From Escherichia phage dhaeg, in sequence record MN850609.1: a stretch of DNA of 64,000 bases; one strand, written 5' to 3'. The translations under genes were made by a program, and so were the position numbers. A model generated the notes under the pieces. That model was not told the DNA's origin, made no database searches, and saw only the letters and a program-made list of their open reading frames with translations. This document shows positions 10,085 to 61,510 of the stretch, in pieces (position 1 is the stretch's first letter; the number at the start of each line of letters is the position of its first letter).

Positions 10085-13000
10085 TTATGGTGTATCAATC
10101 CATTCGAATTTAACAGAACGAGTTACTGGGTCCGGAATTATACGAACGTTACCAATACGTAACCAATCACGAATGGTCAAGTTACTCATTGAAGCATTAT
10201 CAGAAGGTAATGCACCAATATCAGACGGTTGAGGTGGGTTACCGCCATCAAATACCTGAACAAATCCAGACCAAGCATTTTTATTTTGCTGCCAAGTACG
10301 AGTCCAACGAGTTGTGCTTCCATCTGCAGTATTTGGATAGGTAATCCAATCCTGGTAAAGTGAATTCAGAGTGTTACCGAACTGAGTTAATGTACCTGGT
10401 GATTTAACTTCTTCACCACGAACCAAATACGGCAACCCTGTTACTTCGTTAATTTTTTCAACCATTTTAAAATAACCAGGGAACTGATTATAAGTAGCCG
10501 AATCATTAACGTCAACAGACCAAAAGCCTGTATTGTCTGCATTAGGTTTTCTGGAATAAAGGTCGGCAGGTTTAGTACCTTGAGAACGAATTCTCGAGTT
10601 AACCGTTAAACCGCCATTAGCTGTCAAAGGGTCTCGGACAGTTAACGTATTATTAATTGCAACACTACCATCAAATCTTGATGCAGCTGTAGCAACAAAA
10701 CCTGTGGTAGTAATACCAGATGCTTTAGTTACACTTAACCCGCCATTAATAGTAGCATTACCGTTGTATAGAGTTAAGTCACCTTCTGATAAAAGTAGGG
10801 AACCATCTCTACGGAAGGTCCATCTTCTTTGTGTCTGGGCTTCATCAATATAATGCAATACAAATGAACCTTCGTCCGGACTTGTTTCAGATTCATTTAT
10901 TAAAGTACCAAAACTAAATGTCCCGGTTTTATACCTTTGCTTTGCGATAGGAACATATTTAGAAGAACCTGGACCTGTAGTTATATTTACAAATATAGGT
11001 GCTTTAACATTAGAAGCATGTTGTGAAGCCCAACTACCTGCACCTTGAGTCTCTGAAATAAATTCAATATAATTCAGAGTACCTACAGTAGAATTGCTAT
11101 TGATTGTAGTAGAACCGGTTAATGTAGTATTATTTGAAGTAATAGAACCACTCAAATTAACTGCACCTGTAACGGTTAAAGTACTTTCAATTCTTACAGG
11201 CTGTTTAAATGCCATATTAGCATTAATATCTTGTGCTATATCACGACGAATAAACTGCGCGCTATCAAATCCATCTAATTTATCAGAGTCAAAAGCCTTA
11301 CCTTTAATCGGAAGATAGTGAGTTAATGCCGTATTCATTTGAAGAGGGGAAATAGCAAAGCCATCGTCTTCAAATTTAGCCAGGTTAGCAACAGAACCGT
11401 TAGTATCGTCACCTTCCCAAGTGGCTGTACCTGTAGTTAATTTAACATATCCTCTACGAGCAGAAGTAGCTTCCCAGGATTTTTCCTGTTGGACGATATA
11501 TTTGTAATGCTTAGGACTAAACGCTTTATTACTTACCGTACCATCAATAACTTCGGCCTGAGTAGCAAGCTGGATAATACCTTCGGCATTTTCGGTAGCC
11601 TTTTTAGCTTGAAGCTTAAGAGGAGTAATGATTGTTTTATCATCGGTTCCAGTATTAACTTCAGTTTGGGTAGCCAAACGAGCCGTACCACGTTGGGTAT
11701 TACTTGCTTCACGGATATCTAGTGTATAATGGTTCCATAAGGTTCCTGATTCAATCAAACCGCTGGCTGCTGAGACAGAAGTTCTAGCAGTATTATCAAA
11801 TCTTGTTTTAATTTTCAACGGAGTTGAAATAACATTATCTAATACACCTGCATCAAATTCTACTTGAGTACCAATACGAGCAATACCAGTTAAAGTCTCT
11901 GTAGCCTTCCTATCATTTAACGTCTTAGGCGTTACCGCACGAGTATAATCAGTTCCAGCATCAGTCTCTGCTTGCGTAGCAATTTCAATTAAACCATGAT
12001 TAGTATCAGTAGAACGACGAGCACCTAATGTTTCAGGTGTGACAACCGAGTTACTAAAACCAGGGTTAGTAGCACCAGCATTAACTTCGGCTTGCGTAGC
12101 AAGATATACGGCACCTTGGTTATTTTGGTCAGCTTTATACTGGTCCAAAGCTTTAGGAGAAATAACTAAAGTAGTAGTGTTCTTATTATAAACGTTGGTA
12201 CCTACAGTTGCTCTGGAGTCCGCAGGAGTGGTTCCTGTGGTAGATACATATTTTACTATACCAGACAGGCTTTCGGTTCCCTGGCGCGTCTGTAGCTTCT
12301 TAGGAGTGATAATGGTTGTATCATCAACACCTGCATCAGTTTCCTGTTGCGTAGCAATTTCAGCTACACCACGACGAGTTTCTGTAGCAGTACGTTCGTT
12401 TAATTTCTTAGGAGAAATAATCAAATCGTCCTGGAAAGCGAAAGTTGTATTCTGGTTTACCTGAGCAGTTGTAGCAATACGAGCAATACCACGACGTGAT
12501 TCGGTGGCAACACGATTAGCTAAAGTCTGTGGAGTAATTGCAAGTTCTTTTTCAGGATTATTTTCATGGTCGACGTTTGCCTGGGTCTGAGATGCAAGGG
12601 CAATAACACCGAGACGAGCACGAGTTAAATCATCCTTAGAATCCACACGTTCTACAGTAGGAACGTTCTGAGCAACCACCCAGTAGTTAACGTTAATATC
12701 TGTATCTTCAAGATAACTTAATTCGATAACCGGAGTATAACTTAAGTTACCATTAAAGGTCAATACGTCATTCAGAACCCATTCAGTATCCGGTGGATAT
12801 TCCGAACGTTTAGGGAACTGGAGCAATTGAACCGAAGAAGCAATTTTATCACCTACAGCAGCCTTAATATTTACTGTCTGGGCTTTACGAAGATAGTTCA
12901 ATGCGATTTTAATAGTATCGCCTTGCGCTACGTTAGTAGGTAAAGTGATATTAATAGTTTGTGGAGTTGTGTTATTAGGACCAAAAACAATAACACTTTC

Positions 13001-13963
13001 ATTAGCCAAGAGCTCAACATCGTCACGAATTACACGTAAACGAGTTTGACGGTCTCCGTCCCAAACATACCACATTTTTTCAACAGAGTTATAAACAAAG
13101 AACCCATCACCGGAGGTACGGAATTCCATGCTGTGCTGGCCAGGCTTACCTAATGAAGACGACGCATCAAACGTTTCAACTACTAAATGGAACTTACTTC
13201 CAAGACCATCGATATCAACGGTTTTAACCATATCACCTTGGTTTGCATACTTAGGAAGAGTAAATTTAATTACTGCACCTGAAGTATAACGACGTAAAAC
13301 GTTATCACCTGCTTGTGATTGGAACTGTGCAGTGTTAGGCTCTACACGAATACCGCGTTCTTCGTTACCTGCTTCCCAGAAATGCCAAAGACGGTTAGCA
13401 AAGATAAGCATGTTATAAGAAAAAGGTTTGGTTATCAGAGTTTCAGAGAACTGGTTACCAAATCGAACAATTTTCTGATTACCGCCGCCTGGAGCAGAAC
13501 TAGATTGAACCTTGATTTCATTATAACCTACACGGCCACCAATGTCCTTGATTACAATGGTATCGCCATCAGTAGGGTTAGGAGGCAGAGTAAATGTAGT
13601 AAAGCTAGCAGCAGAATCCACTGCGATATATTCACCGGAAGCCAGCTGGCGTGTAGGAGATGCTACTGTAATCCATTTAGGGTCAGTACGGGTAGCGGTC
13701 CAATATCCAGGTACAAAAGTTCCAGCCGGTGCAGCGATATCACGTTGAGCAACCCAAATACGCTGGTCATGGATTACGGCAAACCCTTTCTTATATCCGC
13801 GCGTCTCGTCGTACGCCTGGATGGTGTTCTCATCTATAAAGAATTCAACGTTGACGCCATCATCTAGTACATTGTAATCGGCTTTGGCAACATTGATAAC
13901 TTTCTCGCCCGCAGCATCGAGTCCGGATGTAGCACGGAATGCAGGTTTTAAAATATCAGCCAT
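10085..13963 (-). CDS. 34: long tail fibre proximal subunit gp34
   Basis: 1292 aa (T4 gp34 about 1289 aa); repeated ...TQxExxAG.D...ITP.KL... segments; divergent from rnh as in T4. Confidence 0.9.
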   Translation of the reverse strand: MADILKPAFRATSGLDAAGEKVINVAKADYNVLDDGVNVEFFIDENTIQAYDETRGYKKGFAVIHDQRIWVAQRDIAAPAGTFVPGYWTATRTDPKWITVASPTRQLASGEYIAVDSAASFTTFTLPPNPTDGDTIVIKDIGGRVGYNEIKVQSSSAPGGGNQKIVRFGNQFSETLITKPFSYNMLIFANRLWHFWEAGNEERGIRVEPNTAQFQSQAGDNVLRRYTSGAVIKFTLPKYANQGDMVKTVDIDGLGSKFHLVVETFDASSSLGKPGQHSMEFRTSGDGFFVYNSVEKMWYVWDGDRQTRLRVIRDDVELLANESVIVFGPNNTTPQTINITLPTNVAQGDTIKIALNYLRKAQTVNIKAAVGDKIASSVQLLQFPKRSEYPPDTEWVLNDVLTFNGNLSYTPVIELSYLEDTDINVNYWVVAQNVPTVERVDSKDDLTRARLGVIALASQTQANVDHENNPEKELAITPQTLANRVATESRRGIARIATTAQVNQNTTFAFQDDLIISPKKLNERTATETRRGVAEIATQQETDAGVDDTTIITPKKLQTRQGTESLSGIVKYVSTTGTTPADSRATVGTNVYNKNTTTLVISPKALDQYKADQNNQGAVYLATQAEVNAGATNPGFSNSVVTPETLGARRSTDTNHGLIEIATQAETDAGTDYTRAVTPKTLNDRKATETLTGIARIGTQVEFDAGVLDNVISTPLKIKTRFDNTARTSVSAASGLIESGTLWNHYTLDIREASNTQRGTARLATQTEVNTGTDDKTIITPLKLQAKKATENAEGIIQLATQAEVIDGTVSNKAFSPKHYKYIVQQEKSWEATSARRGYVKLTTGTATWEGDDTNGSVANLAKFEDDGFAISPLQMNTALTHYLPIKGKAFDSDKLDGFDSAQFIRRDIAQDINANMAFKQPVRIESTLTVTGAVNLSGSITSNNTTLTGSTTINSNSTVGTLNYIEFISETQGAGSWASQHASNVKAPIFVNITTGPGSSKYVPIAKQRYKTGTFSFGTLINESETSPDEGSFVLHYIDEAQTQRRWTFRRDGSLLLSEGDLTLYNGNATINGGLSVTKASGITTTGFVATAASRFDGSVAINNTLTVRDPLTANGGLTVNSRIRSQGTKPADLYSRKPNADNTGFWSVDVNDSATYNQFPGYFKMVEKINEVTGLPYLVRGEEVKSPGTLTQFGNTLNSLYQDWITYPNTADGSTTRWTRTWQQNKNAWSGFVQVFDGGNPPQPSDIGALPSDNASMSNLTIRDWLRIGNVRIIPDPVTRSVKFEWIDTP

Positions 13964-50991: not shown

Positions 50992-51219
50992 TTAGAACTC
51001 TTCTTGCTCTTCGTCATCCATGGATTCTAATTCAGCCCGTTTACCTGCCAGGGCATCACGAACACTGATATCATCCGAATCTCGAAGTTCAGCTTCTTTA
51101 CTACGAGTTTTGTAATACTTCTCCAATTCCTTCAAACCGTCCATGGTTTGACAAGAACTAATTTTAGACATGAAGCTCTCGATAGAGGCTTCATAGATAA
51201 CTTCTTTAAAGGACTTCAT
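50992..51219 (-). CDS. UvsW.1
   Basis: 75 aa acidic ORF immediately downstream of uvsW, overlapping its stop. Confidence 0.6.
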   Translation of the reverse strand: MKSFKEVIYEASIESFMSKISSCQTMDGLKELEKYYKTRSKEAELRDSDDISVRDALAGKRAELESMDDEEQEEF

Positions 51220-52712
51220 AAATCCACCTGTTTCATTACGTAATTAAATTTCTCGTCAGCATAACGTTGAATACGTTCTAAGGCATGTTTTAATGCATAA
51301 TTCAAATGAACATATTTCTTTTTAGCATTTGCTGATTTAGGCTTAACGCCCATGTCGTCTATAATGTCCCAAACTTGTGCTGTTGATTTAGAAGCATGTT
51401 TACGGAGCACACGACCTATTGTCTGGAGTACAATGATTTTGGATTTTACCGGATGTGCAAATATTACATGGTGGAGGTTCTTAACGGAAATACCAGTAGA
51501 GAACACACCATAACTTGCCACAACAATAATACCCTTACCATTTTCCGCCATTACTTTAAGAGCATTACGAGTTTCTGTATTAACTTCACCTGATACGTAA
51601 TAAACTTCTTTATGTTGCTCTTTAACCATTTCAAAAAGAGTTTTACCGTGCTCGATGTTTTTAAACATCAGGAATACGTTCTCTTCTTTCTTAGCGAGTT
51701 TAACAGCTAAATTAGCAACCCATTTATTACGACGAGTAGCCTTAGTAATGACTTTAATTTCTGATTGGTAATCTTTACCTTTCATCTTAACAGTGAATTC
51801 ATCCGGATAACGAAGGAAAATACTGTTTATTTTTAAATCAGTTACCTGTCCTTCTTCCATTAACTGTGAAGTGGATACTGGCTTAAACACATCACCAAAC
51901 AAACCCATATATTGCATTAAATTGGCTTTACCGTCTTTTAAAGAACCGGACAAACCGAATTTAAACATACAATTGGTAAGGCCTTCGATGATGGTAGAAA
52001 TTGATTTACCTGTTGCCAAATGGCATTCGTCATTCATAAACATACCAAACTGAGCAAACCATTCTTTAGGTTGTTTAATAGCCGTTTGATAAGTTGAAAC
52101 ATAAATCATTGCATCAGAATCACGAGCAGTACCTGAACGAATACCAAGCATAGCGGCTTTAGGGAACAAACGATAATCGATGAAGTCATTAATCATCTGG
52201 TCGACAAGTGCAGTAGTAGGAACTAAGATAAGAATTTTACCTTCATAGTTCTCAACGTAATATCGACTCAGGAGCGCCTGAATCAATGATTTACCTGCGG
52301 ATGTAGGTAAATTCAGAATTGCACGACGTTTTGTCAGACCGTTGTATACGGCTTCATTCTGGTACCAATGTGGCTCAATCTTGGTAGAACCTGAATAAAT
52401 CTCTTGTGAAGCCACCCATGAGTCAAAATCTTCGCGAGAAATATCTTCCTGTTCAAGAATACGTGGGTCTATCCAAAGAGAGTATTCAAACTGGTCAGCG
52501 AATTTTTTAATTTGTGGGACTAGACCATACGGAAGTTTACGGTTATAATCTAGAAGACGAATTCTCCCGTCCCATTGCCCGTAACGGTATTTAGGGTTAA
52601 ATTTATATCCATCAGCTTCAAAGCTGAAATAGTCTCTGAGTTCGTAGAAGGTGGATTCATCACACTCAACACGAACATGACTAAAATTATCAAAATGTAC
52701 TTGAATTTGCAT
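51216..52712 (-). CDS. uvsW: UvsW DNA/RNA helicase (SF2)
   Basis: 498 aa; Walker A NLPTSAGKS, DECH box (MNDECHLATGKS), near-colinear with T4 UvsW. Confidence 0.95.
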   Translation of the reverse strand: MQIQVHFDNFSHVRVECDESTFYELRDYFSFEADGYKFNPKYRYGQWDGRIRLLDYNRKLPYGLVPQIKKFADQFEYSLWIDPRILEQEDISREDFDSWVASQEIYSGSTKIEPHWYQNEAVYNGLTKRRAILNLPTSAGKSLIQALLSRYYVENYEGKILILVPTTALVDQMINDFIDYRLFPKAAMLGIRSGTARDSDAMIYVSTYQTAIKQPKEWFAQFGMFMNDECHLATGKSISTIIEGLTNCMFKFGLSGSLKDGKANLMQYMGLFGDVFKPVSTSQLMEEGQVTDLKINSIFLRYPDEFTVKMKGKDYQSEIKVITKATRRNKWVANLAVKLAKKEENVFLMFKNIEHGKTLFEMVKEQHKEVYYVSGEVNTETRNALKVMAENGKGIIVVASYGVFSTGISVKNLHHVIFAHPVKSKIIVLQTIGRVLRKHASKSTAQVWDIIDDMGVKPKSANAKKKYVHLNYALKHALERIQRYADEKFNYVMKQVDL

Positions 52713-52726
52713 GTCTAATTCTCAGT

Positions 52727-52748
52727 TATAAATATAATTATATTTATA
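52727..52748. promoter_or_regulatory. divergent late promoters: TATAAATA (+, inh) and TATTTATA (= TATAAATA on -, uvsW)
   Basis: tataaata at 52727-52734 on plus; tatttata at 52741-52748. Confidence 0.5.
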
Positions 52749-52767
52749 CACCAACAAGAGACTAATT

Positions 52768-53439
52768 ATGGATACTCAATATATTGAAGAGCTTCGTGCA
52801 CTCGAAGATAAAAAAGAAGCTAAAGCTAAGTTAATCGAATACGGCGAACAATTCGGTTTGAAACTTAAGAAAACCCGTTCGTTTGATAATTTGATTATCG
52901 ATATCTCTGAAGGCCTTAAAGCCCTGGCTGATGAACCACTTCCAGAAACCGAAGGTTTGTCTATTTCTGATTTGATTGATGCCGCCGACGAACTCACAGG
53001 CGCTAACGAATTTGTTGATGGTGCCGAACCCGCCAAAGAAGAGGCTACCCTATTATTTGATGCCCCTGAAGCGGTAGTTGAAGTTATTGAGGTAGCCGAA
53101 CTTCCTAAGGTAGAGATTATTGAAGAAGACGTCCCGTTTGTCGAAGAGAAATTCAAAGAGGCTGTGGCCGAGGTTATTGAATCTGAAAAACCTGTATTCT
53201 CTTTACCTGAAAACTTTAGCCCTAATCTTTTACTCATTGGTAAAAACCCAGGGTATTGTACTGTGCCTTGGTGGATTTATCAATGGATTACCGAAACCCC
53301 TGATTGGAAAGAACGCCCTAAAGATTTCCAACACCCATCTGCCCACCAAACACTATTCAGTCTGATTTATTACATCAATCGTAATGGTTCAGTATTAGTA
53401 CGTGAAACGCGTAATTCATCTTTCGTAACTTTAAAATAA
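52768..53439 (+). CDS. inh: putative Inh (prohead protease inhibitor) by position
   Basis: 223 aa acidic protein between uvsW and hoc (T4 Inh about 226 aa). Confidence 0.55.
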   Translation: MDTQYIEELRALEDKKEAKAKLIEYGEQFGLKLKKTRSFDNLIIDISEGLKALADEPLPETEGLSISDLIDAADELTGANEFVDGAEPAKEEATLLFDAPEAVVEVIEVAELPKVEIIEEDVPFVEEKFKEAVAEVIESEKPVFSLPENFSPNLLLIGKNPGYCTVPWWIYQWITETPDWKERPKDFQHPSAHQTLFSLIYYINRNGSVLVRETRNSSFVTLK

Positions 53440-53448
53440 GGGTAAAAT

Positions 53449-54861
53449 ATGGCTTTTACTGTAAGTATAGCCGGCACAGCGTCTATTAAAATAGGCGAAA
53501 GTGCTAACTACACTGCTACCGCAACAGGTGCAGCTGTAGAAGGAACCATTACATATGTATGGTCTATTGATGGTGCTTCTAATCCAGAAGCAACCAATGT
53601 TTTGAAATATACAGGTGCTGCACCTGTAGGTAAGAAAGTTTTAAAAGTAGTAGCAACTTCTACTCCGGCTGAAGGCGAACCTGAGGTAGCTGAAGATACT
53701 TTTGAAGTTACCGTAGCTAATAAGACCATGTCTATTTCTTTGGCTTTGGACCCTATTTCTGTTTCTAAAGAAGTTGGCCAATCTCAAGTTGTTACTGCTA
53801 ACGTGACGGGTGCACCTGCAGGTGCAACAATTGCTTATGTTTGGAAACGTAACACCAGCGTAATCTCTGGCCAAACTGGTAAAACTATTACTGTAACCGA
53901 AGCCGCGGAAGCAAATTACACGTTGAACTGTGAAGTTACTGTTACCGCCCCTGAATATAACCCGGGTACCGCTACTAAAGGTGCTGCGGTAACTTTTGTT
54001 AAGAAAACTATATCAGGTGTTTCTGTTACTTTAACACCGGCCTCAATTAGTACAGAGAAAGACTCATCTGCACAGTTTAAAGCGGATGTAGTCGGCGCTC
54101 CTTCCGGCGTAAATGCAACTTATTCTTGGAAGAAAAACGGTTCTATTATTCCGGGCGAAAGCAGTAATACTCTTGCTGTTGATACGTCTACAATAGGTTC
54201 TTACTCTATTGAAGTTTCGGTACTCCTAAAAGGTACGGATTATAATGATTTAACCGTTACCAAAACAGGAAGTGTAACAATTACTAAAAAGACTATGGCA
54301 GGTGTTTCTGTTAATTTAACGCCTGCTTCTATTACTGTCTCTGAAGGAATCCCGGCTTCTTTTAAAGCCACGGTAGTCGGTGCGCCTAGTGGTGCTACTT
54401 TTGCTTATTCTTGGAAGAAAGATGGTTCACCTGTTGTGGGTGCTACGGATACATTAGTAATTGACACAAGCGCTGAAGGTTCACAGGTTATTGAAGTTTC
54501 TGTTGTGGTTTCGGCTACCGACTATAATTCTGTGACCGTCACAAAATCCGGTAATGTAACAATTACGGCTAAAGTCGCTCCTGAACCAGAGGGCGAACTA
54601 CCTTACGTTCATCCGCTACCAGTTCGTAATTCAGCTTATATTTGGTGTGGTTGGTGGGTTATGGACGAAATTCAGAAAATGACCCTTGAAGGCAAAGACT
54701 GGAAAACTGACGAACCTGATAGTGAATATTATCTCCATCGTTATACCCTTCAAAAAATGGTAGCCGATTATCCTGAGGTTGATGTACAGGAATCTCGTAA
54801 TGGTAGAATTATTCACAGAACCGCTTTGGATGCTGGAATTATTTACGATTACGTTTATTAA
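53449..54861 (+). CDS. hoc: Hoc highly antigenic outer capsid protein, four Ig-like repeats + capsid-binding C-terminus
   Basis: 470 aa; C-terminus PEPEGELPYVHPLP...AYIWCGWWVMDEIQKMT.EGKDWKTD.PDS.YYLHRYTLQKM..DYPEVDVQESRNG.IIH.TAL matches T4 Hoc; four tandem ~90-aa Ig-like repeats. Confidence 0.92.
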   Translation: MAFTVSIAGTASIKIGESANYTATATGAAVEGTITYVWSIDGASNPEATNVLKYTGAAPVGKKVLKVVATSTPAEGEPEVAEDTFEVTVANKTMSISLALDPISVSKEVGQSQVVTANVTGAPAGATIAYVWKRNTSVISGQTGKTITVTEAAEANYTLNCEVTVTAPEYNPGTATKGAAVTFVKKTISGVSVTLTPASISTEKDSSAQFKADVVGAPSGVNATYSWKKNGSIIPGESSNTLAVDTSTIGSYSIEVSVLLKGTDYNDLTVTKTGSVTITKKTMAGVSVNLTPASITVSEGIPASFKATVVGAPSGATFAYSWKKDGSPVVGATDTLVIDTSAEGSQVIEVSVVVSATDYNSVTVTKSGNVTITAKVAPEPEGELPYVHPLPVRNSAYIWCGWWVMDEIQKMTLEGKDWKTDEPDSEYYLHRYTLQKMVADYPEVDVQESRNGRIIHRTALDAGIIYDYVY

Positions 54862-54864
54862 TAA

Positions 54865-54886
54865 AGGGCCGCAAGGCCCTTATTTA
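54865..54886 (+). terminator. terminator after hoc
   Basis: agggcc-gcaa-ggccct + TATTT (weak T-run). Confidence 0.45.
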
Positions 54887-54946
54887 GTTTATGATAATGT
54901 TTCGGGAGATTAAGTTATTGACGAATAATTTTTAATAGGTGGATAT

Positions 54947-55126
54947 ATGAAATTTAACAAAGATATAGGGTTGTTGGTTTTCTTTATAGTGCTGTTTTTG
55001 TTTTCGTTAATTTCATTAACTAGTGGGTTGTTTGCTTCTATATTGGCTCTTTTCACATGCATTAGTTCCTTTTTTGGGATAATAGCTACTATAGATAAAA
55101 TTTTACATACCAAAAAGGGCCCGTAG
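54947..55126 (+). CDS. small hydrophobic ORF (59 aa, predicted membrane peptide)
   Basis: MKFNKDIGLLVFFIVLFLFSLISLTSGLFASILALFTCISSFFGIIA...; sits between convergent terminators; weak SD. Confidence 0.3.
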   Translation: MKFNKDIGLLVFFIVLFLFSLISLTSGLFASILALFTCISSFFGIIATIDKILHTKKGP

Positions 55127-55140
55127 GCCCTTTATTATTT
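55114..55140. terminator. bidirectional terminator
   Basis: aaagggcc-cgta-ggcccttt with T-runs on both strands. Confidence 0.6.
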
Positions 55141-56001
55141 TTCAGGAGGGACGTAAACTAAGTCTTTCCTTTCTAAGATGTAGCCATTTCTCGACTCTTG
55201 TATCTCTACTTCAGGATACTTAGACAAAAGGTCGGCTACTTTTTGTAACTCACATTTATACTTGTATGGGCTGTTGTTTATATCCAAAGTCCAATCTTCT
55301 CCCAATCTAACGGCTTCTCTTATTTCGTCCCATACCCACCAACCTATCCACATATACGATTCATTTCTTCCACCGCCATAGGGTAAATAAGCATTAAGGT
55401 CGTTATCATATATGAAAGGGCACTGCAATACATCATCCCTAGGTTTTATTTCAACTAAAAGTTCTTCAGAAGCAGGGATATATGCTCCTTCGCAGGTCGC
55501 TATAGATTTTAATGTATAATCTCCAAATTTATCAGGGTCGTCTATTAATATATCAATATCTTCGTCTTTAGATAATTCTACTCCATCTCTATACCATCTA
55601 CAAATTCTTTCGGCATAAGTGGGTTCCACTCTACACGACGGGCGAAGTGAAACTGTTTCTCCTATATTGGCATATATTAATTCCCTAGAGTTTATATCTA
55701 GGACTATTCTTCTTGGAAGGGTACCTATTTCAAGTTCTATTTCGTTACTCTTTGTTATTTCACCACTTTTCTTATTTGTTATGGTCGCATAAAATGTTCC
55801 TGCCGCCGGGAATCCTACTTCCCATAAATTTAATTCAAAAGGGTCTTCGGTAGGAAGTTGTGGAATATGGACATCGTTTTTATACCAATTAATTTCTACG
55901 TCATCTAGAGTAGAACCGGGTGGTAATACAAACCCGGTATAAAAGGTTACTGTCCTGCCAACCAATTCATATCTAGGACCATTTATTTTAAGTACAATCA
56001 T
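55135..56001 (-). CDS. Hoc-like protein (Ig-like N-terminal domains + Hoc-type capsid-binding C-terminal domain)
   Basis: 288 aa; C-terminus YMWIGWWVWDEIREAVRLGEDWTLD...YKYKCELQKVADLLSKYPEVEIQESRNGYILERKDL aligns with Hoc C-terminus. Confidence 0.7.
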   Translation of the reverse strand: MIVLKINGPRYELVGRTVTFYTGFVLPPGSTLDDVEINWYKNDVHIPQLPTEDPFELNLWEVGFPAAGTFYATITNKKSGEITKSNEIELEIGTLPRRIVLDINSRELIYANIGETVSLRPSCRVEPTYAERICRWYRDGVELSKDEDIDILIDDPDKFGDYTLKSIATCEGAYIPASEELLVEIKPRDDVLQCPFIYDNDLNAYLPYGGGRNESYMWIGWWVWDEIREAVRLGEDWTLDINNSPYKYKCELQKVADLLSKYPEVEIQESRNGYILERKDLVYVPPEK

Positions 56002-56010
56002 TTAACCTCC

Positions 56011-57516
56011 TTAAAACGTGCTCATATTGGTATGGTCTTCGACAGAAAATAAAACTTCAACAGGGATATCTGTAGTCGTATTAAGAGGGCCGCCTACAAT
56101 AAACACAGATACAGTGTAGTATTTTCTAGTATCACGGTCAAATATTTCGTAACGGTTAAATTGTCTTGCACTAGAATAAGCCAAATCGTCGAATAATTCA
56201 GGAGATGATGACCACAACACATTACTCCAGTTGGCACATTCTATTCCGTTTTCATAGTTGGTAAATCTTTTAATATCAAGCCTATTAGTAAGACCTGCAT
56301 TAGTAGCCCTTATATGGATGCCTACAGATGAGTACATGCGAACATGAAGAACCATATTAAGGTCCCACAAACGTATTTCCTTCCACTCTGAAGTGTTCAG
56401 AGGCTTATCAAATCTTAAAGAGCCTTTCCAATATCTAGGTGGATAGAATGGGAAAAGTTTATCATATAAAGATTTTAATTGAGACTGGGTTAAAGAATCG
56501 ACATCAAATACTGCATCTTTGCCTGGCGCACCTGCAGGACCTATAGGACCTTGAATACCTTGTGGCCCGGGTTCACCCTTTTCACCTTTAGGACCTGGGT
56601 CGCCTTGCGGTCCTTGGGCACCTTGCTCTCCAGGTGCACCATCTTCTCCGGGATTTCCTGGACGCCCTTCTTTTACAAATAAATTCCAATAATCGGCCCA
56701 CAGGTCTCCACTCCCAGGATAACTATCATTATTTGCTATATTATCCTGGATACAAATCCAAGAAGACCCTTCGCACTGGACCAAATCGTTTATATAATAA
56801 GACGAACCAAGGGCCCAGTTTCCGGCCCAGATAAACCCATTACCATCTTGGCCTGGCGCGCCTTGTGGACCTTGAGGGCCGGTTGGGCCTGTTGGTCCTT
56901 GAGGACCTGGTGCACCGATATTAGCCAATAGTGCCCAAACTCCTTCGCTAGGAGGTATTGTTCCTGTATTAGAACTGATGCAAAAATAAGAAGCTCCCTG
57001 GTATCCAACTGCATCGTCTTTAGAGTATTGGGTAGATTCATCCCAGGCTCCCTTCCACACCAAACCTGCCGGGCCTATAGGACCTTGTGGTCCTTGCGGT
57101 CCTACTTCTCCTTGGGCCCCTTGTAAACCCTGAGGGCCTTCTTTTCCTGGTGAACCCGGGTCTCCTTTAGGACCTTCTGGACCTGCTGGTCCTGGTTCGC
57201 CCTTTTCTCCTTTAGGACCGGGGTTACCTTGAATACCTTGCGGCCCTGGGTCTCCTTTAGGGCCTTGTGGACCTTCAGTACCAGGTGTTAGCATCTCATT
57301 AGTTATACCTAAATGGGCCAACGCGCCTTCCCTAGAAGCTTGTTTTATAAATTCAAGTCCATAGCTTTGAGAAGAATCTAGCATAGTAGGGTCTAAGGTG
57401 CTTTCACTAGTGAGTATGTCCACAAATTCCAATGATTTGTTCTGTGGAACTTCTACTAATGATACGCCTCTAAAGTGGCCTCTACCATCATGCCCGTATA
57501 ATGGATTGTCTGACAT
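56011..57516 (-). CDS. collagen-like triple-helix repeat protein
   Basis: 501 aa; three blocks of G-x-y repeats rich in Pro/Gln/Lys/Glu ([49 protein letters not shown]...), interspersed with repeated W.G.W...Y..D.V...G.S..CI globular segments. Confidence 0.75.
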
Positions 57517-57526
57517 AAAATCTCCT

Positions 57527-57556
57527 GTTTACAAGTTAAAATTCTCATGTTACTAT
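57527..57556 (+). promoter_or_regulatory. early promoter (GTTTAC, 18 nt, TACTAT)
   Basis: gtttac 57527-57532; tactat 57551-57556. Confidence 0.5.
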
Positions 57557-57585
57557 TGAATAGTTCAAATCACAAGAGAACTGTT

Positions 57586-57798
57586 ATGGATAAGATTAAA
57601 GTACATTTTTTACATGAATCGGGTATGAATTTTATTGATATTGCTAAAAAGATTGGCGGAACTGCCAGAGATATGGCTAAAGCCTGGGCCGAAGTTGAGA
57701 ATGCTAAGGCCAAGTTTAAAGCAAAAGAGAAAGTTGTGTATCGTAAAAGATTAAACAACAAAAAGGTCAGCGCAAAGCGCGTTTTTGGTCTAAAGTAA
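57586..57798 (+). CDS. small basic protein with possible helix-turn-helix (70 aa)
   Basis: MDKIKVHFLHESGMNFIDIAKKIGGTARDMAKAW... then Lys/Arg-rich tail. Confidence 0.4.
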   Translation: MDKIKVHFLHESGMNFIDIAKKIGGTARDMAKAWAEVENAKAKFKAKEKVVYRKRLNNKKVSAKRVFGLK

Positions 57799-57912
57799 TA
57801 TGCTTTAAATTTAGGTGTGTTATAATGGGTCTAGGTCCTTCCGTTAAACCATTTGGCTTGGTGACAGAAGATTACTAGCTCTTCTATTTAATTATATTTA
57901 TTATGGTGATTT

Positions 57913-58920
57913 ATGTTCAAGAAATATAGCAGTCTGGAAAACCACTACAACAGTAAGTTTATCGAAAAACTCCGTACCAATGGTTTGACTGGTGGTGAAT
58001 GGGTAGCACGTGAGAAGATTCATGGAACCAACTTTAGTTTAATCATAGAACGTGACGCAGTCACATGCGCCAAGCGCACTGGCCCAATTCTCCCTGCTGA
58101 AGATTTCTATGGTTATGAAATTGTACTTAAGAACTACGCTGATTCTATTAAATCTATACAAGATATTATGGAAACTTCAGCAGCCGTATCTTATCAAGTT
58201 TTCGGTGAATTCGCTGGAACAGGCATTCAGAAGAACGTTGATTACGGTGATAAAGATTTTTATGTATTTGACATTATTGTTACCACCGAAAGCGGCGATG
58301 TGACTTATGTCGACGATTATATGATGGAATCATTTTGTAAGACGTTCAAATTTAAAATGGCACCACTTTTAGGTCGTGGTAAATTTGAAGACCTTATTAA
58401 ATTGCCAAATGATTTAGATTCCGTCCTTCCTGATTATAATTTTACAGTAGATAATGTCGGGCTAGCCGAAGCTAATGCTCATGTGTGGAATGCCGAAGCA
58501 AAAGGCGAAGTATTTACCGCTGAAGGGTACGTATTAAAACCTTGTTATCCGCTTTGGCTGCCTAATGGAAATCGTGTAGCAATTAAATGCAAGAACTCTA
58601 AATTCAGCGAGAAGAAAAAAACTGATAAGCCTATTAAAGTTGCAGTAGTATTATCCCAAGACGATTTAGATTTATTACAACAATTCACAGATTATGTGAC
58701 TGTTAACCGTATTAACAACGTTATCAGTAAGATTGGTGAAGTATCACCTAAAGATTTTGGAAAGGTAATGGGACTGACGGTCCAAGATATTTTGGAAGAG
58801 GCAGCCCGCGAAGAATTAGAATTAACCGATGCAGAAAACCCTGTTGAAGTTAAAAAGCAGCTTATTGAGTGCGTTAAAGATACGCTACGAGCTGTATGGA
58901 TTGAATTAGTATCCAAATAA
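57913..58920 (+). CDS. rnlB: RNA ligase 2
   Basis: 335 aa; near-colinear with T4 Rnl2 ([65 protein letters not shown]). Confidence 0.97.
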
Positions 58921-58926
58921 ACAATA

Positions 58927-58955
58927 AAGGGACCTTACGGTCCCTTTTATTTTTC
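58927..58955 (+). terminator. terminator after rnlB
   Basis: aagggacc-ttac-ggtccctt + TTATTTTT. Confidence 0.6.
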
Positions 58956-60227
58956 TAGTGGTGGAAGTTTAACACCGAGATAAGAACTCAACTGGCTTTG
59001 GTTAGCCATTTTGTCCATATCAGAACCATCAATAATGCGGGCTTCTTTATCGTCCTTAGCGACGGTATAAGGGTTTGCAGTCAATGCATAACGAGCAAGC
59101 AATGCTACTGTAGGTTGTAAGCTTTCTGGGTCAACAATAACCTTAAATTCACCTACTGAAGTATCACCTTCTTCATCAACCACATCCAAACCTTCCGTAT
59201 AAGGCGCATAATATAAAGATGCGACCGTCTGTCCTTCACCCATCTGAGCATTTACACCAACAATAACATAATCACATGGACTATTCATATCGGCATAAAG
59301 AGGTAGACCATTCTTTAATACACCATAAGCCAATTCATCTTGGTCTTCCTTTTTCTCAACCCAACCGGATGCAGCGAGAATAGCAGCACAACGAGAACTA
59401 GCTACGGCATAAGTCCCAGCGAAAGAAGTTTGACGTTGGACGGCAGAGTTCATCTCACACATGTAATAATATAATGTACGAGCACGGTCCTGGGCATTAT
59501 CATAACGTGGGTTAGTAAGGTCCAATACGCCCTTTTCAGAAACACCCTGGACTTTAAAACGAGAACTCACTGTAATTAATGACTGTAATACGTCCTTATT
59601 AATTTCTTCTGCCATTTGAATGCCTAGCAGATTTTCAATGAAATTAGGAGCATTAAACCCGTTTGATTCTAGGTCTTGGGCTAATTCGACTGTCAATGAA
59701 GTTTTCAGTTTACGTGATTTAACTTCAGATTGCCATTTGTCAATACGGAAGCCTGCTTCAGCAATTTCAGGATGGCCTTGTTCGAATTTAGAAGTAATAG
59801 CAGCATCTGATACCATACGAATATGCCCAGCGGCCACTGCTTCAGAAATAACTTCACCGAGGTCGGTTTCCGTGGTTCCGGCGAAAGGAGATGCTTCTAG
59901 AACTTTAAACACTACACTTTCAAACTGGAACATATCGCCGGCTGCATAAGCTGTAGACGAATCGGTAAATTCAGGAATATTTTCACGTTCCGACATACCA
60001 ATCTGGCCTGCAAATGTAGCGCCACCAAGATAAGTCATTTTGTCGTCAGGGTTAAGTACACGAACCCCGTACAGAGCAGCAACAGGTTGGCTTGTTTTTT
60101 GTTCAGCAACTAGGGCTTTAAAGATTCGTTTATTAGTTGCTTGGGTGTATGAAAGAAGAGCAGGACGGCCAACCGAGTTGGCAGCCGTCAATGTGGATTC
60201 TTTAATTAGGTCTATAATCTTAGACAT
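58947..60227 (-). CDS. gp24-like capsid vertex protein, divergent paralog
   Basis: 426 aa; same domain order as gp24/gp23 fold (..RK.LKT..TVELAQDLE.NGF.AP.F.E.LL...M..EINKD.LQSLITVS.R.KV.GVS..G..DLT) but about half identical to the adjacent copy. Confidence 0.8.
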   Translation of the reverse strand: MSKIIDLIKESTLTAANSVGRPALLSYTQATNKRIFKALVAEQKTSQPVAALYGVRVLNPDDKMTYLGGATFAGQIGMSERENIPEFTDSSTAYAAGDMFQFESVVFKVLEASPFAGTTETDLGEVISEAVAAGHIRMVSDAAITSKFEQGHPEIAEAGFRIDKWQSEVKSRKLKTSLTVELAQDLESNGFNAPNFIENLLGIQMAEEINKDVLQSLITVSSRFKVQGVSEKGVLDLTNPRYDNAQDRARTLYYYMCEMNSAVQRQTSFAGTYAVASSRCAAILAASGWVEKKEDQDELAYGVLKNGLPLYADMNSPCDYVIVGVNAQMGEGQTVASLYYAPYTEGLDVVDEEGDTSVGEFKVIVDPESLQPTVALLARYALTANPYTVAKDDKEARIIDGSDMDKMANQSQLSSYLGVKLPPLEK

Positions 60228-61510
60228 TAATCAGCCTCGTAAATAATTGCTGGAAGTTTAACACCAAGCAGATAAGACATATTACTCTGACCAGCCATTA
60301 AATCCATATTGGTTGCATCGATAACACGAGCTTCTTTATCGTCTTTAGCTACGGTGTACGGGTTAGCGGACAGTGCATAACGAACCATCAGAGAAATAGA
60401 AGGCTGTAATGAATCCGGGTCGACAATAACCTTATAAGCACCAACGTGTTCTTGGTCGTCTAAATCCAGGCCTTCTGTATATGGGGCATAGAAAATAGAA
60501 CCGACAACTTCATTACCACCATAGTTCTCTTTAACACCTACGATAACATAATCCAATGGGCTGTTAACGTCACAGAACAGAGGTAATCCATTCAACAAAT
60601 AACCATAGGCCGTTTCTGGGAGCCAATTATTATCTTCAGGTCTATGTTTTAACCAGCCAGAACCTGCAAGCATTGCAGCCACACGACTTGAAGCCACAAC
60701 AAACGTACCCGAATAAGAAGTAGTTTTCTGGATTTCAGAATTCATCTCACAAACAATTTCATAAAGTTTACGTGCAGATTCTGGAGCACTATCATAAGTC
60801 AAATCGATGATGCCATTATCAGATACACCCGTAACTTTATAGCGTTTGGATACGGTTATTAGAGATTGCAGAACATCTTTATTAATTTCATCTGCCATTA
60901 CTGTAGCCAGGAGGTCTTCTAAGAATGCAGGGGCGTCGAAGCCATTTGATTCCATATCCTGTGCTAATTCTACGGTCAAAGCAGTCTTCAATTTACGGGT
61001 CTTAACAGGGGCATTCCATTTATTAACCTGGAATACAGCATCAGAGATTTCTACATCACTCTCTTCAAATTTAGTGGTATGGGCTGCATCAGGAACCAAA
61101 CGACACGTTAATGACACCAAACCTTCTTGAAGAGCATCGGCCAATTCTGTAGCGCTAGTGGATGCGAGTGGGCTTGCTTGAAGAGCCTTATAAACCACAT
61201 TCTGATACTTAAAGTAGTCACCCTTGGCAATCGCCTGGGCTTTATCTGTGAGTTCCGGGATAGTTTCACGGTCTTTAGAACCAACTTCACCACCATAAAC
61301 TGCACCGGTTTGGAAACTGAATTCATTATCAGGGGTAAGATATTTGACACCATACAACGCAGCGATAGGTTGGTTTGTACGTTGTTCAGCGATGATATCG
61401 CGATAAATTAGTTTAGTGGTAGCACGGGTCAAAGCAACAAGATTAGGGCGACCCAATGAGTTGCTGGTAGTAGTTGTTGACTCGCGCAGTAATTCGTTAA
61501 TCTTTGCCAT
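60227..61510 (-). CDS. 24: gp24 capsid vertex protein
   Basis: 427 aa, same as T4 gp24; MAKINELLRESTTT.SNS.GRPNLVALTRATTKLIY.DI.A.QRTNQP.AA.YG.KYL.PDNEF. Confidence 0.92.
   Translation of the reverse strand: MAKINELLRESTTTTSNSLGRPNLVALTRATTKLIYRDIIAEQRTNQPIAALYGVKYLTPDNEFSFQTGAVYGGEVGSKDRETIPELTDKAQAIAKGDYFKYQNVVYKALQASPLASTSATELADALQEGLVSLTCRLVPDAAHTTKFEESDVEISDAVFQVNKWNAPVKTRKLKTALTVELAQDMESNGFDAPAFLEDLLATVMADEINKDVLQSLITVSKRYKVTGVSDNGIIDLTYDSAPESARKLYEIVCEMNSEIQKTTSYSGTFVVASSRVAAMLAGSGWLKHRPEDNNWLPETAYGYLLNGLPLFCDVNSPLDYVIVGVKENYGGNEVVGSIFYAPYTEGLDLDDQEHVGAYKVIVDPDSLQPSISLMVRYALSANPYTVAKDDKEARVIDATNMDLMAGQSNMSYLLGVKLPAIIYEAD

Follow-up and report, generated by a model that had tools for sequence, protein, structure and literature searches.

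The 470-residue protein encoded at positions 53449–54861 of the window (the whole stretch of DNA analysed, 64,000 nucleotides in length) raises the question of whether it is a Hoc protein with four Ig-like domains where the Hoc of phage T4 has three and, if so, which domain is the additional one and by what route the number of domains changes.

The hoc locus and the domain organization of its product

The gene and its immediate surroundings contain the following features.

52727–52734, + strand: T4-type late promoter motif TATAAATA, upstream of inh (read from the sequence and found by motif search)
52768–53439, + strand: inh, encoding the prohead protease inhibitor; partner gene upstream of hoc (PHROG 1051, E = 5e-91; annotation; T4 gene order)
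53449–54861, + strand: hoc, head outer capsid (decoration) protein, ATG start, 470 aa plus stop
54864–54881, + strand: terminator-like hairpin, 3 nt past the hoc stop, with seven pairs (five of them G-C) and a T-rich tail

The open reading frame is the hoc gene of the Dhakavirus (Straboviridae) phage dhabil, an ordinary annotated head-decoration gene; its DNA is 100% identical to dhabil_243 of MN850621.1 ('head outer capsid protein'). The protein matches PHROG 1149 'Hoc-like head decoration' (E = 2e-123) and, among PDB entries, T4 Hoc (E = 1.9e-115), to which its C-terminal domain aligns almost collinearly; phmmer against the PDB pairs residues 208–468 with residues 115–375 of T4 Hoc (E = 4e-99). 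Both proteins are acidic, with pI values of 4.9 and 4.7 for the 470-residue Hoc and T4 Hoc, respectively. The order uvsW–inh–hoc is the same in the open reading frames of the window, in the dhabil annotation and in the T4 annotation, among the head genes and close to rnlB and gene 24, and hoc starts 9 nt past the end of inh. The PHROG and T4 Hoc matches and the T4-like inh–hoc order beside uvsW identify the protein as Hoc, as the initial annotation had proposed. By analogy with T4 biology, the motif TATAAATA is a candidate late promoter, likely to drive inh and hoc; a match to the motif does not in itself prove transcription.

The protein divides into five parts.

53449–53727, + strand: Ig-like domain 1, type A, distal fibre tip (aa 1–93; repeat HMM envelope 1–93; AF2 strands 4–90, pLDDT 82–95)
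53728–54009, + strand: Ig-like domain 2, type B (aa 94–187; repeat HMM 93–187; AF2 strands 97–184, pLDDT 93–96)
54010–54294, + strand: Ig-like domain 3, type C, the 'extra' unit (aa 188–282; repeat HMM 188–282; own clade in the domain tree)
54295–54576, + strand: Ig-like domain 4, type D, adjoining the capsid-binding domain (aa 283–376; repeat HMM 283–376; AF2 strands 287–373)
54577–54861, + strand: C-terminal capsid-binding domain and stop (aa 377–470, 94 aa; E448-S-R-N-G452 motif)

Since Pfam alone could not count the domains, we built a repeat HMM from the units of hoc itself and also ran AF2. The repeat HMM found exactly four units in the 470-residue Hoc and three in T4 Hoc (376 aa). AF2 modelled all four units as β-sandwiches of seven or eight strands; the pLDDT values are 82–97 and mostly above 90. 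The best Foldseek matches of the model were crystal fragments with four Ig domains (Dscam1 and Sidekick, with ∼430 columns aligned), and RB49 Hoc (PDB code 3shs) was also matched (E = 1.5e-10). A possible objection is that only three of the domains are true Ig domains, one repeat being a degenerate linker or otherwise not Ig-folded, so that the protein would be a T4-like three-Ig Hoc in function. Consistent with this, the Pfam Ig models match only residues 217–374 (domains 3 and 4), and weakly: I-set and Ig_3 are placed at 288–374, and I-set (30.5 bits, cut-off 23.7) is the sole Ig model above its gathering score. Unit 1 is also only 25–30% identical to the other units. However, unit 1 is homologous to domain 1 of T4 Hoc, a known Ig-like domain, the predicted β-sandwich and the Foldseek alignment to four-Ig crystal structures extend over all four units, and the published AF2 model of a 68%-identical Hoc from phage PMBT63 also has four Ig-like domains (PMC13435897); we therefore give the three-domain reading next to no credence.

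The sequence and structure predictions thus agree on, and confirm, four predicted Ig-like domains followed by a capsid-binding C-terminus, and nothing contradicts the identity or the count. The initial annotation had made the same count against three in T4, and domain prediction, which might have returned three, gave four. Its description of the units was correct in outline: there are four in tandem, but of 93–95 residues rather than ∼90. The opening KT[MI]S is found at residues 92 and 186 only; the third junction reads KTMA (residue 281) and unit 1 starts with Met1. The motif A.Y.W...G ascribed to each unit is matched strictly once, at residue 223, with a looser Y.W...G in units 1, 3 and 4.

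The conserved capsid-binding C-terminus also claimed there is present as 94 residues that are 86% identical to the corresponding domain of T4 Hoc (residues 281–376). AF2 gave this domain an α/β fold at a lower pLDDT of 54–68, so the fold assignment rests on homology to the T4 sequence. Residues E448-S449-R450-N451-G452 are invariant in an alignment of 29 sequences and align with the T4 motif (residues 355–359); the Glu-Ser-Arg-Asn-Gly motif of the capsid-binding domain has been described as highly conserved (PMC10385173, Figure 7 legend). Searched alone against 1.84 billion representatives, the C-terminal domain retrieved 132 proteins, nearly all of which carry it at the C-terminus.

Divergence of the units and mosaic structure of the alleles

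At the protein level domains 3 and 4 are 59% identical, domain 2 is 36% identical to domains 3 and 4, and domain 1 is 25–30% identical to the others. Local alignment scores compared with 500 shuffles showed that the resemblance among the units exceeds chance, with z = 4.1–6.2 when unit 1 was aligned with units 2–4, z = 18–23 when unit 2 was aligned with units 3 and 4, and z = 36 between units 3 and 4; by the same measure the C-terminal domain is unlike any of the units (z < 1).

The DNA repeats, which had been reported as visible in the gene with a length of ∼270 nt, are faint. The units have a period of 282–285 nt, in frame, and codon-threaded DNA identity is 61.7% between domains 3 and 4 and 41–50% for the other pairs, with a longest in-register exact run between units of 17 nt. 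We downgrade the DNA-repeat reading because Tandem Repeats Finder (positions 53000–55300, minimum score 30) found no array. The strongest repeats at the DNA level are stretches of 61–90 nt with 70–79% identity, which relate unit 3 to unit 4 and the two linkers flanking unit 3 to each other. The linker copies (direct repeat family D4) are as follows.

53989–54049, + strand: left copy, 61 nt, at the junction of domains 2 and 3, ...VTFVKKTISGVSVTLTPASI
54274–54334, + strand: right copy, at the junction of domains 3 and 4, ...VTITKKTMAGVSVNLTPASI

They are 79% identical over 61 nt and lie 285 nt apart. The DNA copies in hoc are not alike enough for the frequent out-of-register recombination of an unstable tandem array; given identities of 41–62% and exact runs of at most 17 nt, we expect homologous recombination out of register to be inefficient in this allele.

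Comparison with relatives identifies the additional unit. Phages UP19, EcWhh-1 and IME08 (Dhakavirus) and VR20 (Gaprivervirus) lack exactly 95 residues, which correspond to domain 3. In JS10, IME341, P0005 and dhabil domain 3 is 93–96% conserved, and it is still 57–60% identical to domain 4, so the two paralogues would predate the divergence of these four. By these sequence comparisons, domain 3 is the one that dhabil Hoc has beyond T4 and three-Ig relatives; it is not a recent duplicate of domain 4 but an old paralogue.

The alleles are mosaics. Megablast matches end near domain borders (nt 284, 837–840 and 1166), and DNA identity changes from domain to domain: CLB_P2 is 100% identical in domain 4 and the C-terminal domain and 93% in domain 1; IME341 has 99% identity in the C-terminal domain and 56% in domain 1, where the cassette has been swapped; and UP19 has 99% identity in domain 1 (95–99% over domains 1 and 2) and 87–88% in domain 4 and the C-terminal domain. 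Domain 2 of the relatives is 73–96% identical to that of the 470-residue Hoc. The UP19 gene tracks the left register (97% identity) as far as about nt 582 and the right register (88%) from there on, and the switch lies inside the linker repeat. A chimera of domains 3 and 4 in UP19, which would have pointed to unequal crossing-over, was considered and rejected: the last Ig domain of UP19 resembles domain 4 throughout (88%), its first 30 nt being equally close to domains 3 and 4, and the junction is in the linker. The level of divergence also shifts at this junction, a change that in-register exchange with a diverged three-unit allele would account for just as well as crossing-over out of register.

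Array length is quantized across the family. Homologue lengths of 373–377, 467–472 and 563–565 residues correspond to three, four and five units with no exceptions, and among the best 120 clusters (90% identity) 87 have four units, 29 have three and four have five. The array described in the initial annotation as expanded is therefore so relative to T4 only, four units being the commonest number among these clusters. In the 132 representatives (50% identity) the length ahead of the capsid-binding domain clusters at multiples of ∼94 residues, from 0 to ∼15 units. The domain tree (one neighbour-joining tree, rooted at its midpoint and without branch support) and the identities place the arrangements A-B-B'-D, A-B'-D'-D'', A-B-D'-D'' and A-B-B'-D'-D'' in other lineages, which indicates that different units were duplicated independently there to reach four or five.

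Recombination and the number of domains

The best-supported route to one-unit changes would be recombination in the linker between domains, which has the conserved sequence KKT[MI][SA]GVSV.LTP.SI. Alleles could be exchanged by homologous recombination during co-infection, with out-of-register crossing-over as a rarer alternative. The mosaic alleles, with breaks close to domain boundaries, make recombination at the linkers plausible. Unequal crossing-over, to which the changes in number had been attributed, is plausible but not proven as their source, because the same junction results when a four-unit allele undergoes homologous exchange with a three-unit one; the exact one-unit steps and the switch in the linker speak for the attribution, whereas its premise of DNA repeats is weak.

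Two other accounts bear on this proposal. If the fourth domain had arisen by unequal crossing-over in dhabil or its immediate ancestors, in an array that is still unstable, then the exact in-frame spacing of 282–285 nt, the 79% identity over 61 nt of the linkers flanking domain 3 and the difference of exactly one unit between close relatives would all be expected. The divergence between the units largely refutes such a recent tandem duplication, and we reject it as highly improbable: Tandem Repeats Finder detects no array, domains 3 and 4 share just 61.7% of their DNA with no exact run beyond 17 nt, and these paralogues are older than the split of JS10, IME341, P0005 and dhabil. The other account, in which pre-existing three- and four-unit alleles are merely shuffled in register during co-infection and duplications are ancient and rare, is a real possibility, even if we doubt that it is the whole explanation. 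It accords with the strongly mosaic per-domain identities of CLB_P2, IME341 and UP19, with the coincidence of the UP19 junction with the drop in identity from 97% to 87–88% and with the age of the domain 3 lineage, but it leaves the four arrangements seen in other lineages unexplained. Those arrangements need several independent gains or losses of one unit, so some out-of-register events must occur in the family. In-register cassette exchange complements recombination at the linkers rather than excluding it. Overall, the explanation that we consider very probably correct is that of a Dhakavirus hoc with four Ig domains, in which domain 3 is an old paralogue and recombination at linkers is the likeliest means by which the number of domains changes. 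The data show the identity of the gene, its four domains, the one-unit steps, the mosaicism and the position of the junction; the recombination mechanism, the capsid site, the length of the fibre and its role in adhesion are inferred.

As a discovery this carries little weight, as the gene is annotated in its source phage and the four-Ig type is the commonest among the closest homologues. Its added value is the cassette-level picture, with domain 3 as the extra unit, steps of one unit and breakpoints at or near the linkers, which provides background for the engineering of Hoc display and for comparing the mucus adherence of therapeutic T4-like phages. Natural pairs of three- and four-Ig alleles, of which dhabil and UP19 are the best, would allow a clean comparison of fibre length with adhesion.

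Predicted function and comparison with other Hoc proteins

From the 86% identity of the C-terminal domain to that of T4 Hoc, we infer that this domain would bind the centre of each hexamer of the major capsid protein (gp23*), with one Hoc per hexamer. The Ig string would project outwards and would be about one domain longer than the 180 Å fibre of T4. By the same homology, infection would not require the protein, which should provide weak adhesion to glycans and surfaces and dispersal of virions. A non-essential Hoc that binds mucin glycans or surfaces by its Ig domains has been described for T4 and PNJ-9, and at the phage level for PMBT63 (PMC11853027, PMC13435897), and a two-Ig Hoc binds MUC2 (PMC11853027). 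That the length of the array may tune adherence, as had been suggested, is conjecture.

A second Hoc paralogue with two Ig domains (Hoc2, 288 aa) adjoins hoc. At the sequence level its common ground with the 470-residue Hoc is the capsid-binding domain only, and the Ig-unit HMM of Hoc did not recognize its Ig domains. On the minus strand from 52000 to 58000 we detected one canonical late promoter, that of uvsW, and none for the hoc2/collagen-like operon. Among the relatives, three or four Ig units occur both with and without Hoc2, in all four combinations. One could speculate that heads are coated by two Hocs that share one binding site, one with four Ig domains and one with two, that the linker, along with the hoc2 cassette being present or absent, forms a system driven by recombination in which the population rapidly re-assorts fibre length and tip specificity, and that the mix and length of the fibres set adhesion to mucus or surfaces; we regard this scenario as unlikely.

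The four-Ig architecture is common among relatives and has already been published. Variable Ig number is likewise established: the architecture of T4 Hoc has been described, and the number of Ig domains varies among Hoc proteins, with arrays of up to ten (PMC10385173). Among the papers covered by our literature search on the hoc of JS98/JS10, none deals with the four-Ig Hoc of JS10 or dhabil in particular.

T4 Hoc (376 aa; PDB entries 5vf3, 8t1x and others) is homologous along its whole length and has one Ig domain fewer, the 470-residue Hoc being 94 residues longer. Domain 1 of T4 Hoc is 46% identical to domain 1 of the dhabil protein and its domain 3 is 57% identical to domain 4. The middle of the array is poorly conserved, with T4 domain 2 sharing just 27–33% identity with any unit of dhabil.

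The four-Ig Dhakavirus phages JS10, CLB_P2 and IME341 have the same order of A-B-C-D and C-terminal domain in 469–472 residues. The hoc genes of JS10 and CLB_P2 are 90% and 96% identical in DNA, respectively, and both phages also have an adjoining second Hoc-like gene; IME341 has a different domain 1 cassette (48% amino-acid and 56% nucleotide identity) and no second Hoc-like gene. The three-Ig alleles of UP19, EcWhh-1, IME08 and VR20 lie at the same locus as the four-Ig hoc. Their domains 1, 2 and 4 and C-terminal domain are orthologous to those of dhabil, with amino-acid identities of 77–98%, 82–96%, 76–90% and 93–96%, respectively, except that domain 1 of VR20 is a different cassette (49% amino-acid identity).

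The Hoc-like protein of Klebsiella phage PMBT63 (468 aa, P0045) is 68% identical over 99% of its length. It has four Ig-like domains and a capsid-binding domain, with the additional Ig relative to T4 placed at Lys109–Glu209, and the phage is retained on mucin-coated plates (PMC13435897). Its domains 3 and 4 (D' and D'') are both nearer to domain 4 of dhabil than to domain 3 and form separate clades, so its fourth domain probably came from a different duplication. The three N-terminal Ig domains of RB49 Hoc (PDB entry 3shs) present a similar Ig string ahead of the capsid-binding domain, with ∼15% identity in the structural alignment. The Hoc of Serratia phage Muldoon carries ten Ig domains before the same kind of capsid-binding domain, and both it and RB49 Hoc differ from the dhabil protein in the number and the sequence of their units.

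The hoc gene and its four Ig-like domains

The region of the window around hoc closely matches Escherichia phage dhabil (MN850621.1; Straboviridae, Tevenvirinae, Dhakavirus), a Danish wastewater isolate with E. coli MG1655 as host (PMC7552041). The hoc gene is 100% identical in the two, so that 'dhabil Hoc' below denotes the same protein, and is annotated in MN850621.1 as 'head outer capsid protein'. The gene order, uvsW followed by inh-hoc, is as in T4.

Features of the inh-hoc region (window positions)
52727: T4-type late-promoter motif TATAAATA, upstream of inh (motif match)
52768-53439, + strand: inh, prohead protease inhibitor gene; stop 9 nt before the hoc start
53449-54861, + strand: hoc, ATG start, 470-aa ORF
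54864-54881: terminator-like hairpin, 3 nt past the hoc stop

The ORF is exactly as first called, and by homology its product is Hoc, as the initial annotation had it. It matches the PHROG 'Hoc-like head decoration' family with E = 2e-123 and the PDB T4 Hoc chains with E = 1.9e-115. The capsid-binding domain (final 94 residues) has 86% identity to its T4 counterpart and includes a Glu-Ser-Arg-Asn-Gly motif that is invariant across our 29-sequence Hoc alignment and was singled out as highly conserved by Fokine et al. (PMC10385173).

Four independent routes agree that this Hoc has four Ig-like domains, as had been claimed; the domain prediction proposed as a check gave four rather than three. 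The segments at residues 1-93, 94-187, 188-282 and 283-376 (units 1-4, types A-D) align with each other far above shuffled controls: units 3 and 4 form the pair with the highest z-score (36), unit 2 reaches 18-23 with either member of that pair, and comparisons that involve unit 1 give 4-6. By the same measure none of the four resembles the C-terminal domain. With an HMM built from these units, exactly four envelopes are obtained for this protein, compared with three for T4 Hoc, whose length of 376 aa agrees with the initial annotation. The AlphaFold2 model, calculated from the 29-sequence alignment, has four β-sandwiches of 7-8 strands (pLDDT mostly >90) and an α/β C-terminal domain of lower confidence (pLDDT 54-68). 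According to Foldseek, the PDB entries most similar to the model are four-Ig fragments solved by crystallography (Dscam1 and Sidekick-2), and entry 3shs, the three-Ig fragment of RB49 Hoc, is also matched.

The finer description of the repeats held in part. The units are indeed tandem, with a size of 93-95 rather than ~90 aa. 'KT[MI]S' is found at two junctions, but at the third the sequence is KTMA, and the first unit begins with Met1, while 'A.Y.W...G' is matched strictly only once.

Array types and changes in domain number

A search of 5.8 billion proteins showed that a four-Ig Hoc is not unusual. The best 120 clusters (at 90% identity) fall into three length classes, 373-377 aa (29 clusters), 467-472 aa (87) and 563-565 aa (4), to which the repeat HMM assigns three, four and five units, respectively, with no exceptions. 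Four-unit Hocs occur in JS10, a 2009-era genome, and in many Klebsiella, Salmonella and Shigella phages. Searching with the capsid-binding domain alone against 1.84 billion 50%-identity representatives gave 132 proteins. The stretch preceding this domain tends to be a multiple of ~94 aa long and corresponds to anything between 0 and ~15 units; arrays of two units are the most frequent (40 proteins), and eight proteins have four. Strings of Ig-like domains, up to ten in Muldoon (Fokine et al., 2023; PMC10385173), and a two-Ig variant (Fu et al., 2024; PMC11853027) have been described. The four-Ig form itself was already known: in Klebsiella phage PMBT63, a Hoc of 468 aa that shares 68% identity with the dhabil protein was described with four Ig-like domains and a capsid-binding domain, and its extra domain relative to T4 was placed at Lys109-Glu209 (Ewertz et al., 2026; PMC13435897).

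We classified the units of 16 representative Hocs against those of dhabil.

Array types among representative Hocs (P0005 and P0023 are homologue proteins; primes as used in the classification)
A-B-C-D-Cterm: dhabil, JS10, IME341, P0005; 469-472 aa
A-B-D-Cterm: UP19, EcWhh-1, IME08 (Dhakavirus), VR20 (Gaprivervirus); 375-377 aa
A-B-D'-D'': Klebsiella-phage type; 468 aa
A-B'-D'-D'': Salmonella phage SG1; 470 aa
A-B-B'-D: P0023; 472 aa
A-B-B'-D'-D'': the 563-565-aa proteins

What the three-Ig alleles lack is unit C (domain 3), a difference of exactly 95 aa. This unit forms its own clade in a midpoint-rooted neighbour-joining tree (no bootstrap) and is 93-96% conserved among four-Ig Dhakavirus alleles compared with 59% identity to unit D; it is therefore an old paralogue and not a fresh duplication. 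The fourth domains of dhabil and PMBT63 probably have different origins, and the array types across the family require no fewer than three distinct one-unit gains or losses, affecting different units.

The per-domain DNA identity to dhabil is strongly mosaic across alleles: CLB_P2 is 100% identical in domain 4 and the capsid-binding domain and 93% in domain 1, IME341 has 56% in domain 1 and 99% in the capsid-binding domain, and UP19 has 99% and 87%, respectively. UP19 hoc follows the left register of dhabil with 97% identity as far as nt ~582; beyond nt ~588 the register is shifted by 285 nt and the identity is 88%, with the switch falling within the linker repeat flanking domain 3. In other phages, megablast matches end at nt 284, 837-840 and 1166 of hoc, near the domain borders at nt 279, 561, 846 and 1128. 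These mosaic identities and junctions support the re-assortment of cassettes and unit number by recombination at or near the linkers. The initial annotation had gone further in proposing unequal recombination. This is plausible, but unequal crossing-over is not proven because the level of divergence in UP19 also shifts at the junction; an ordinary exchange, in register, with a three-unit allele that had diverged accounts for the junction equally well.

Within the dhabil allele, out-of-register events are probably rare, given how little its units resemble each other in DNA. In codon-threaded alignments units 3 and 4 share 61.7% of their nucleotides and every other pair 41-50%, and the longest in-register exact run between units is 17 nt. 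The DNA-repeat part of the earlier interpretation was thus overstated: the period is 282-285 rather than ~270 nt, the repeat is faint and Tandem Repeats Finder reported none in hoc. The best-conserved DNA repeat bracketing one whole unit is the linker pair on either side of domain 3 (53989-54049 and 54274-54334; 61 nt, 79% identical, 285-nt spacing).

A second Hoc-like gene and the wider locus

Genes downstream of hoc (window positions)
55135-56001, − strand: hoc2, second Hoc-like gene, 288 aa; directly downstream of hoc on the opposite strand
56011-57516, − strand: collagen-repeat protein gene, 501 aa; upstream of hoc2, ending 9 nt before it

The AlphaFold2 model of Hoc2 (mean pLDDT 88) has two Ig-like β-sandwiches (residues 1-93 and 97-187) and a C-terminal α/β domain with 46% identity to Hoc residues 393-460, ESRNG included. 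Hoc2 is very acidic (pI 4.5, charge of about −20), belongs to a separate family with members mostly of ~265-290 aa and carries a Hoc-like annotation in the GenBank records of JS10, IME08 and dhabil. Hoc and Hoc2 presumably compete for one site on the hexamer. The presence of two Hoc genes in a single phage has been noted for Muldoon and PG7 (PMC10385173). In the locus annotations compared, hoc2 lies beside a four-Ig Hoc in dhabil, CLB_P2 and JS10 and beside a three-Ig Hoc in IME08, and is absent from UP19, IME341, EcWhh-1, VR20 and T4; its presence is therefore not tied to the number of Ig units in Hoc.

In the 501-aa protein, collagen triple-helix sequence occurs in four stretches, and there are two carbohydrate-binding modules of the CBM_5_12 type. 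The protein has 'tail fiber protein' as its best PHROG, and its gene and hoc2 look like an operon. A motif search found no TATAAATA upstream of it. By megablast, the cassette with this gene occurs only in dhabil, CLB_P2 and Ec2-ASingh, and in JS10 its place is taken by a shorter 'tail fiber protein' of 335 aa. Window positions 54862-57600 are 99.9% identical to the dhabil GenBank record, compared with 100% for hoc, and the window may represent an isolate or assembly that differs slightly from that record.

The hoc-hoc2 gap (54864-55133, ~270 nt) has near-identical G+C-rich terminator hairpins at its ends (54864-54881 and 55114-55133). It holds a very hydrophobic 59-aa ORF (54947-55126, + strand) that is unannotated in dhabil; CLB_P2 annotates a 204-nt ORF there on the opposite strand. 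The gap is only 45 nt in JS10, and the ~270-nt stretch is thus an indel.

Residues 156-216 of Inh, its C-terminal ~60 residues, weakly match the Hoc PHROG profile at its capsid-binding end (E = 1.2e-4), and its PWWIYQWI motif resembles the W-W region of Hoc, which hints that the adjacent inh and hoc may be distantly related. UP19 has a homing endonuclease gene between uvsW and uvsW.1 (2076-2771 of its locus, L003) that dhabil lacks (window 51216-52712), and in T4 segE adjoins uvsW; mobile endonucleases near the locus could promote local exchange of hoc alleles. Further along, downstream of rnlB, are two tandem gene-24-like capsid vertex genes (window ~58947-61510, − strand, ~1281 and 1284 nt; 11499-13413 of the annotated dhabil locus, L001). 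Such a pair is also present in UP19 and IME341, and T4 has one gene 24.

Proposed function in relation to T4 Hoc

By analogy with T4 and its relatives, the C-terminal domain would sit in the middle of every hexamer of the major capsid protein, and the four Ig domains would line up into a more or less straight fibre, exceeding the 180-Å fibre of T4 (PMC10385173) by about one domain. Mucin glycan adhesion via Ig domains has been shown for T4-like phages (PMC11853027) and, at the phage level, for PMBT63 (PMC13435897); that array length might tune such adhesion, as the initial annotation suggested, is a hypothesis. The protein is acidic (pI 4.9, net charge of about −13), similar to T4 Hoc (pI 4.7), which is consistent with its sharing the virion-dispersal role proposed for T4 Hoc (PMC10385173).
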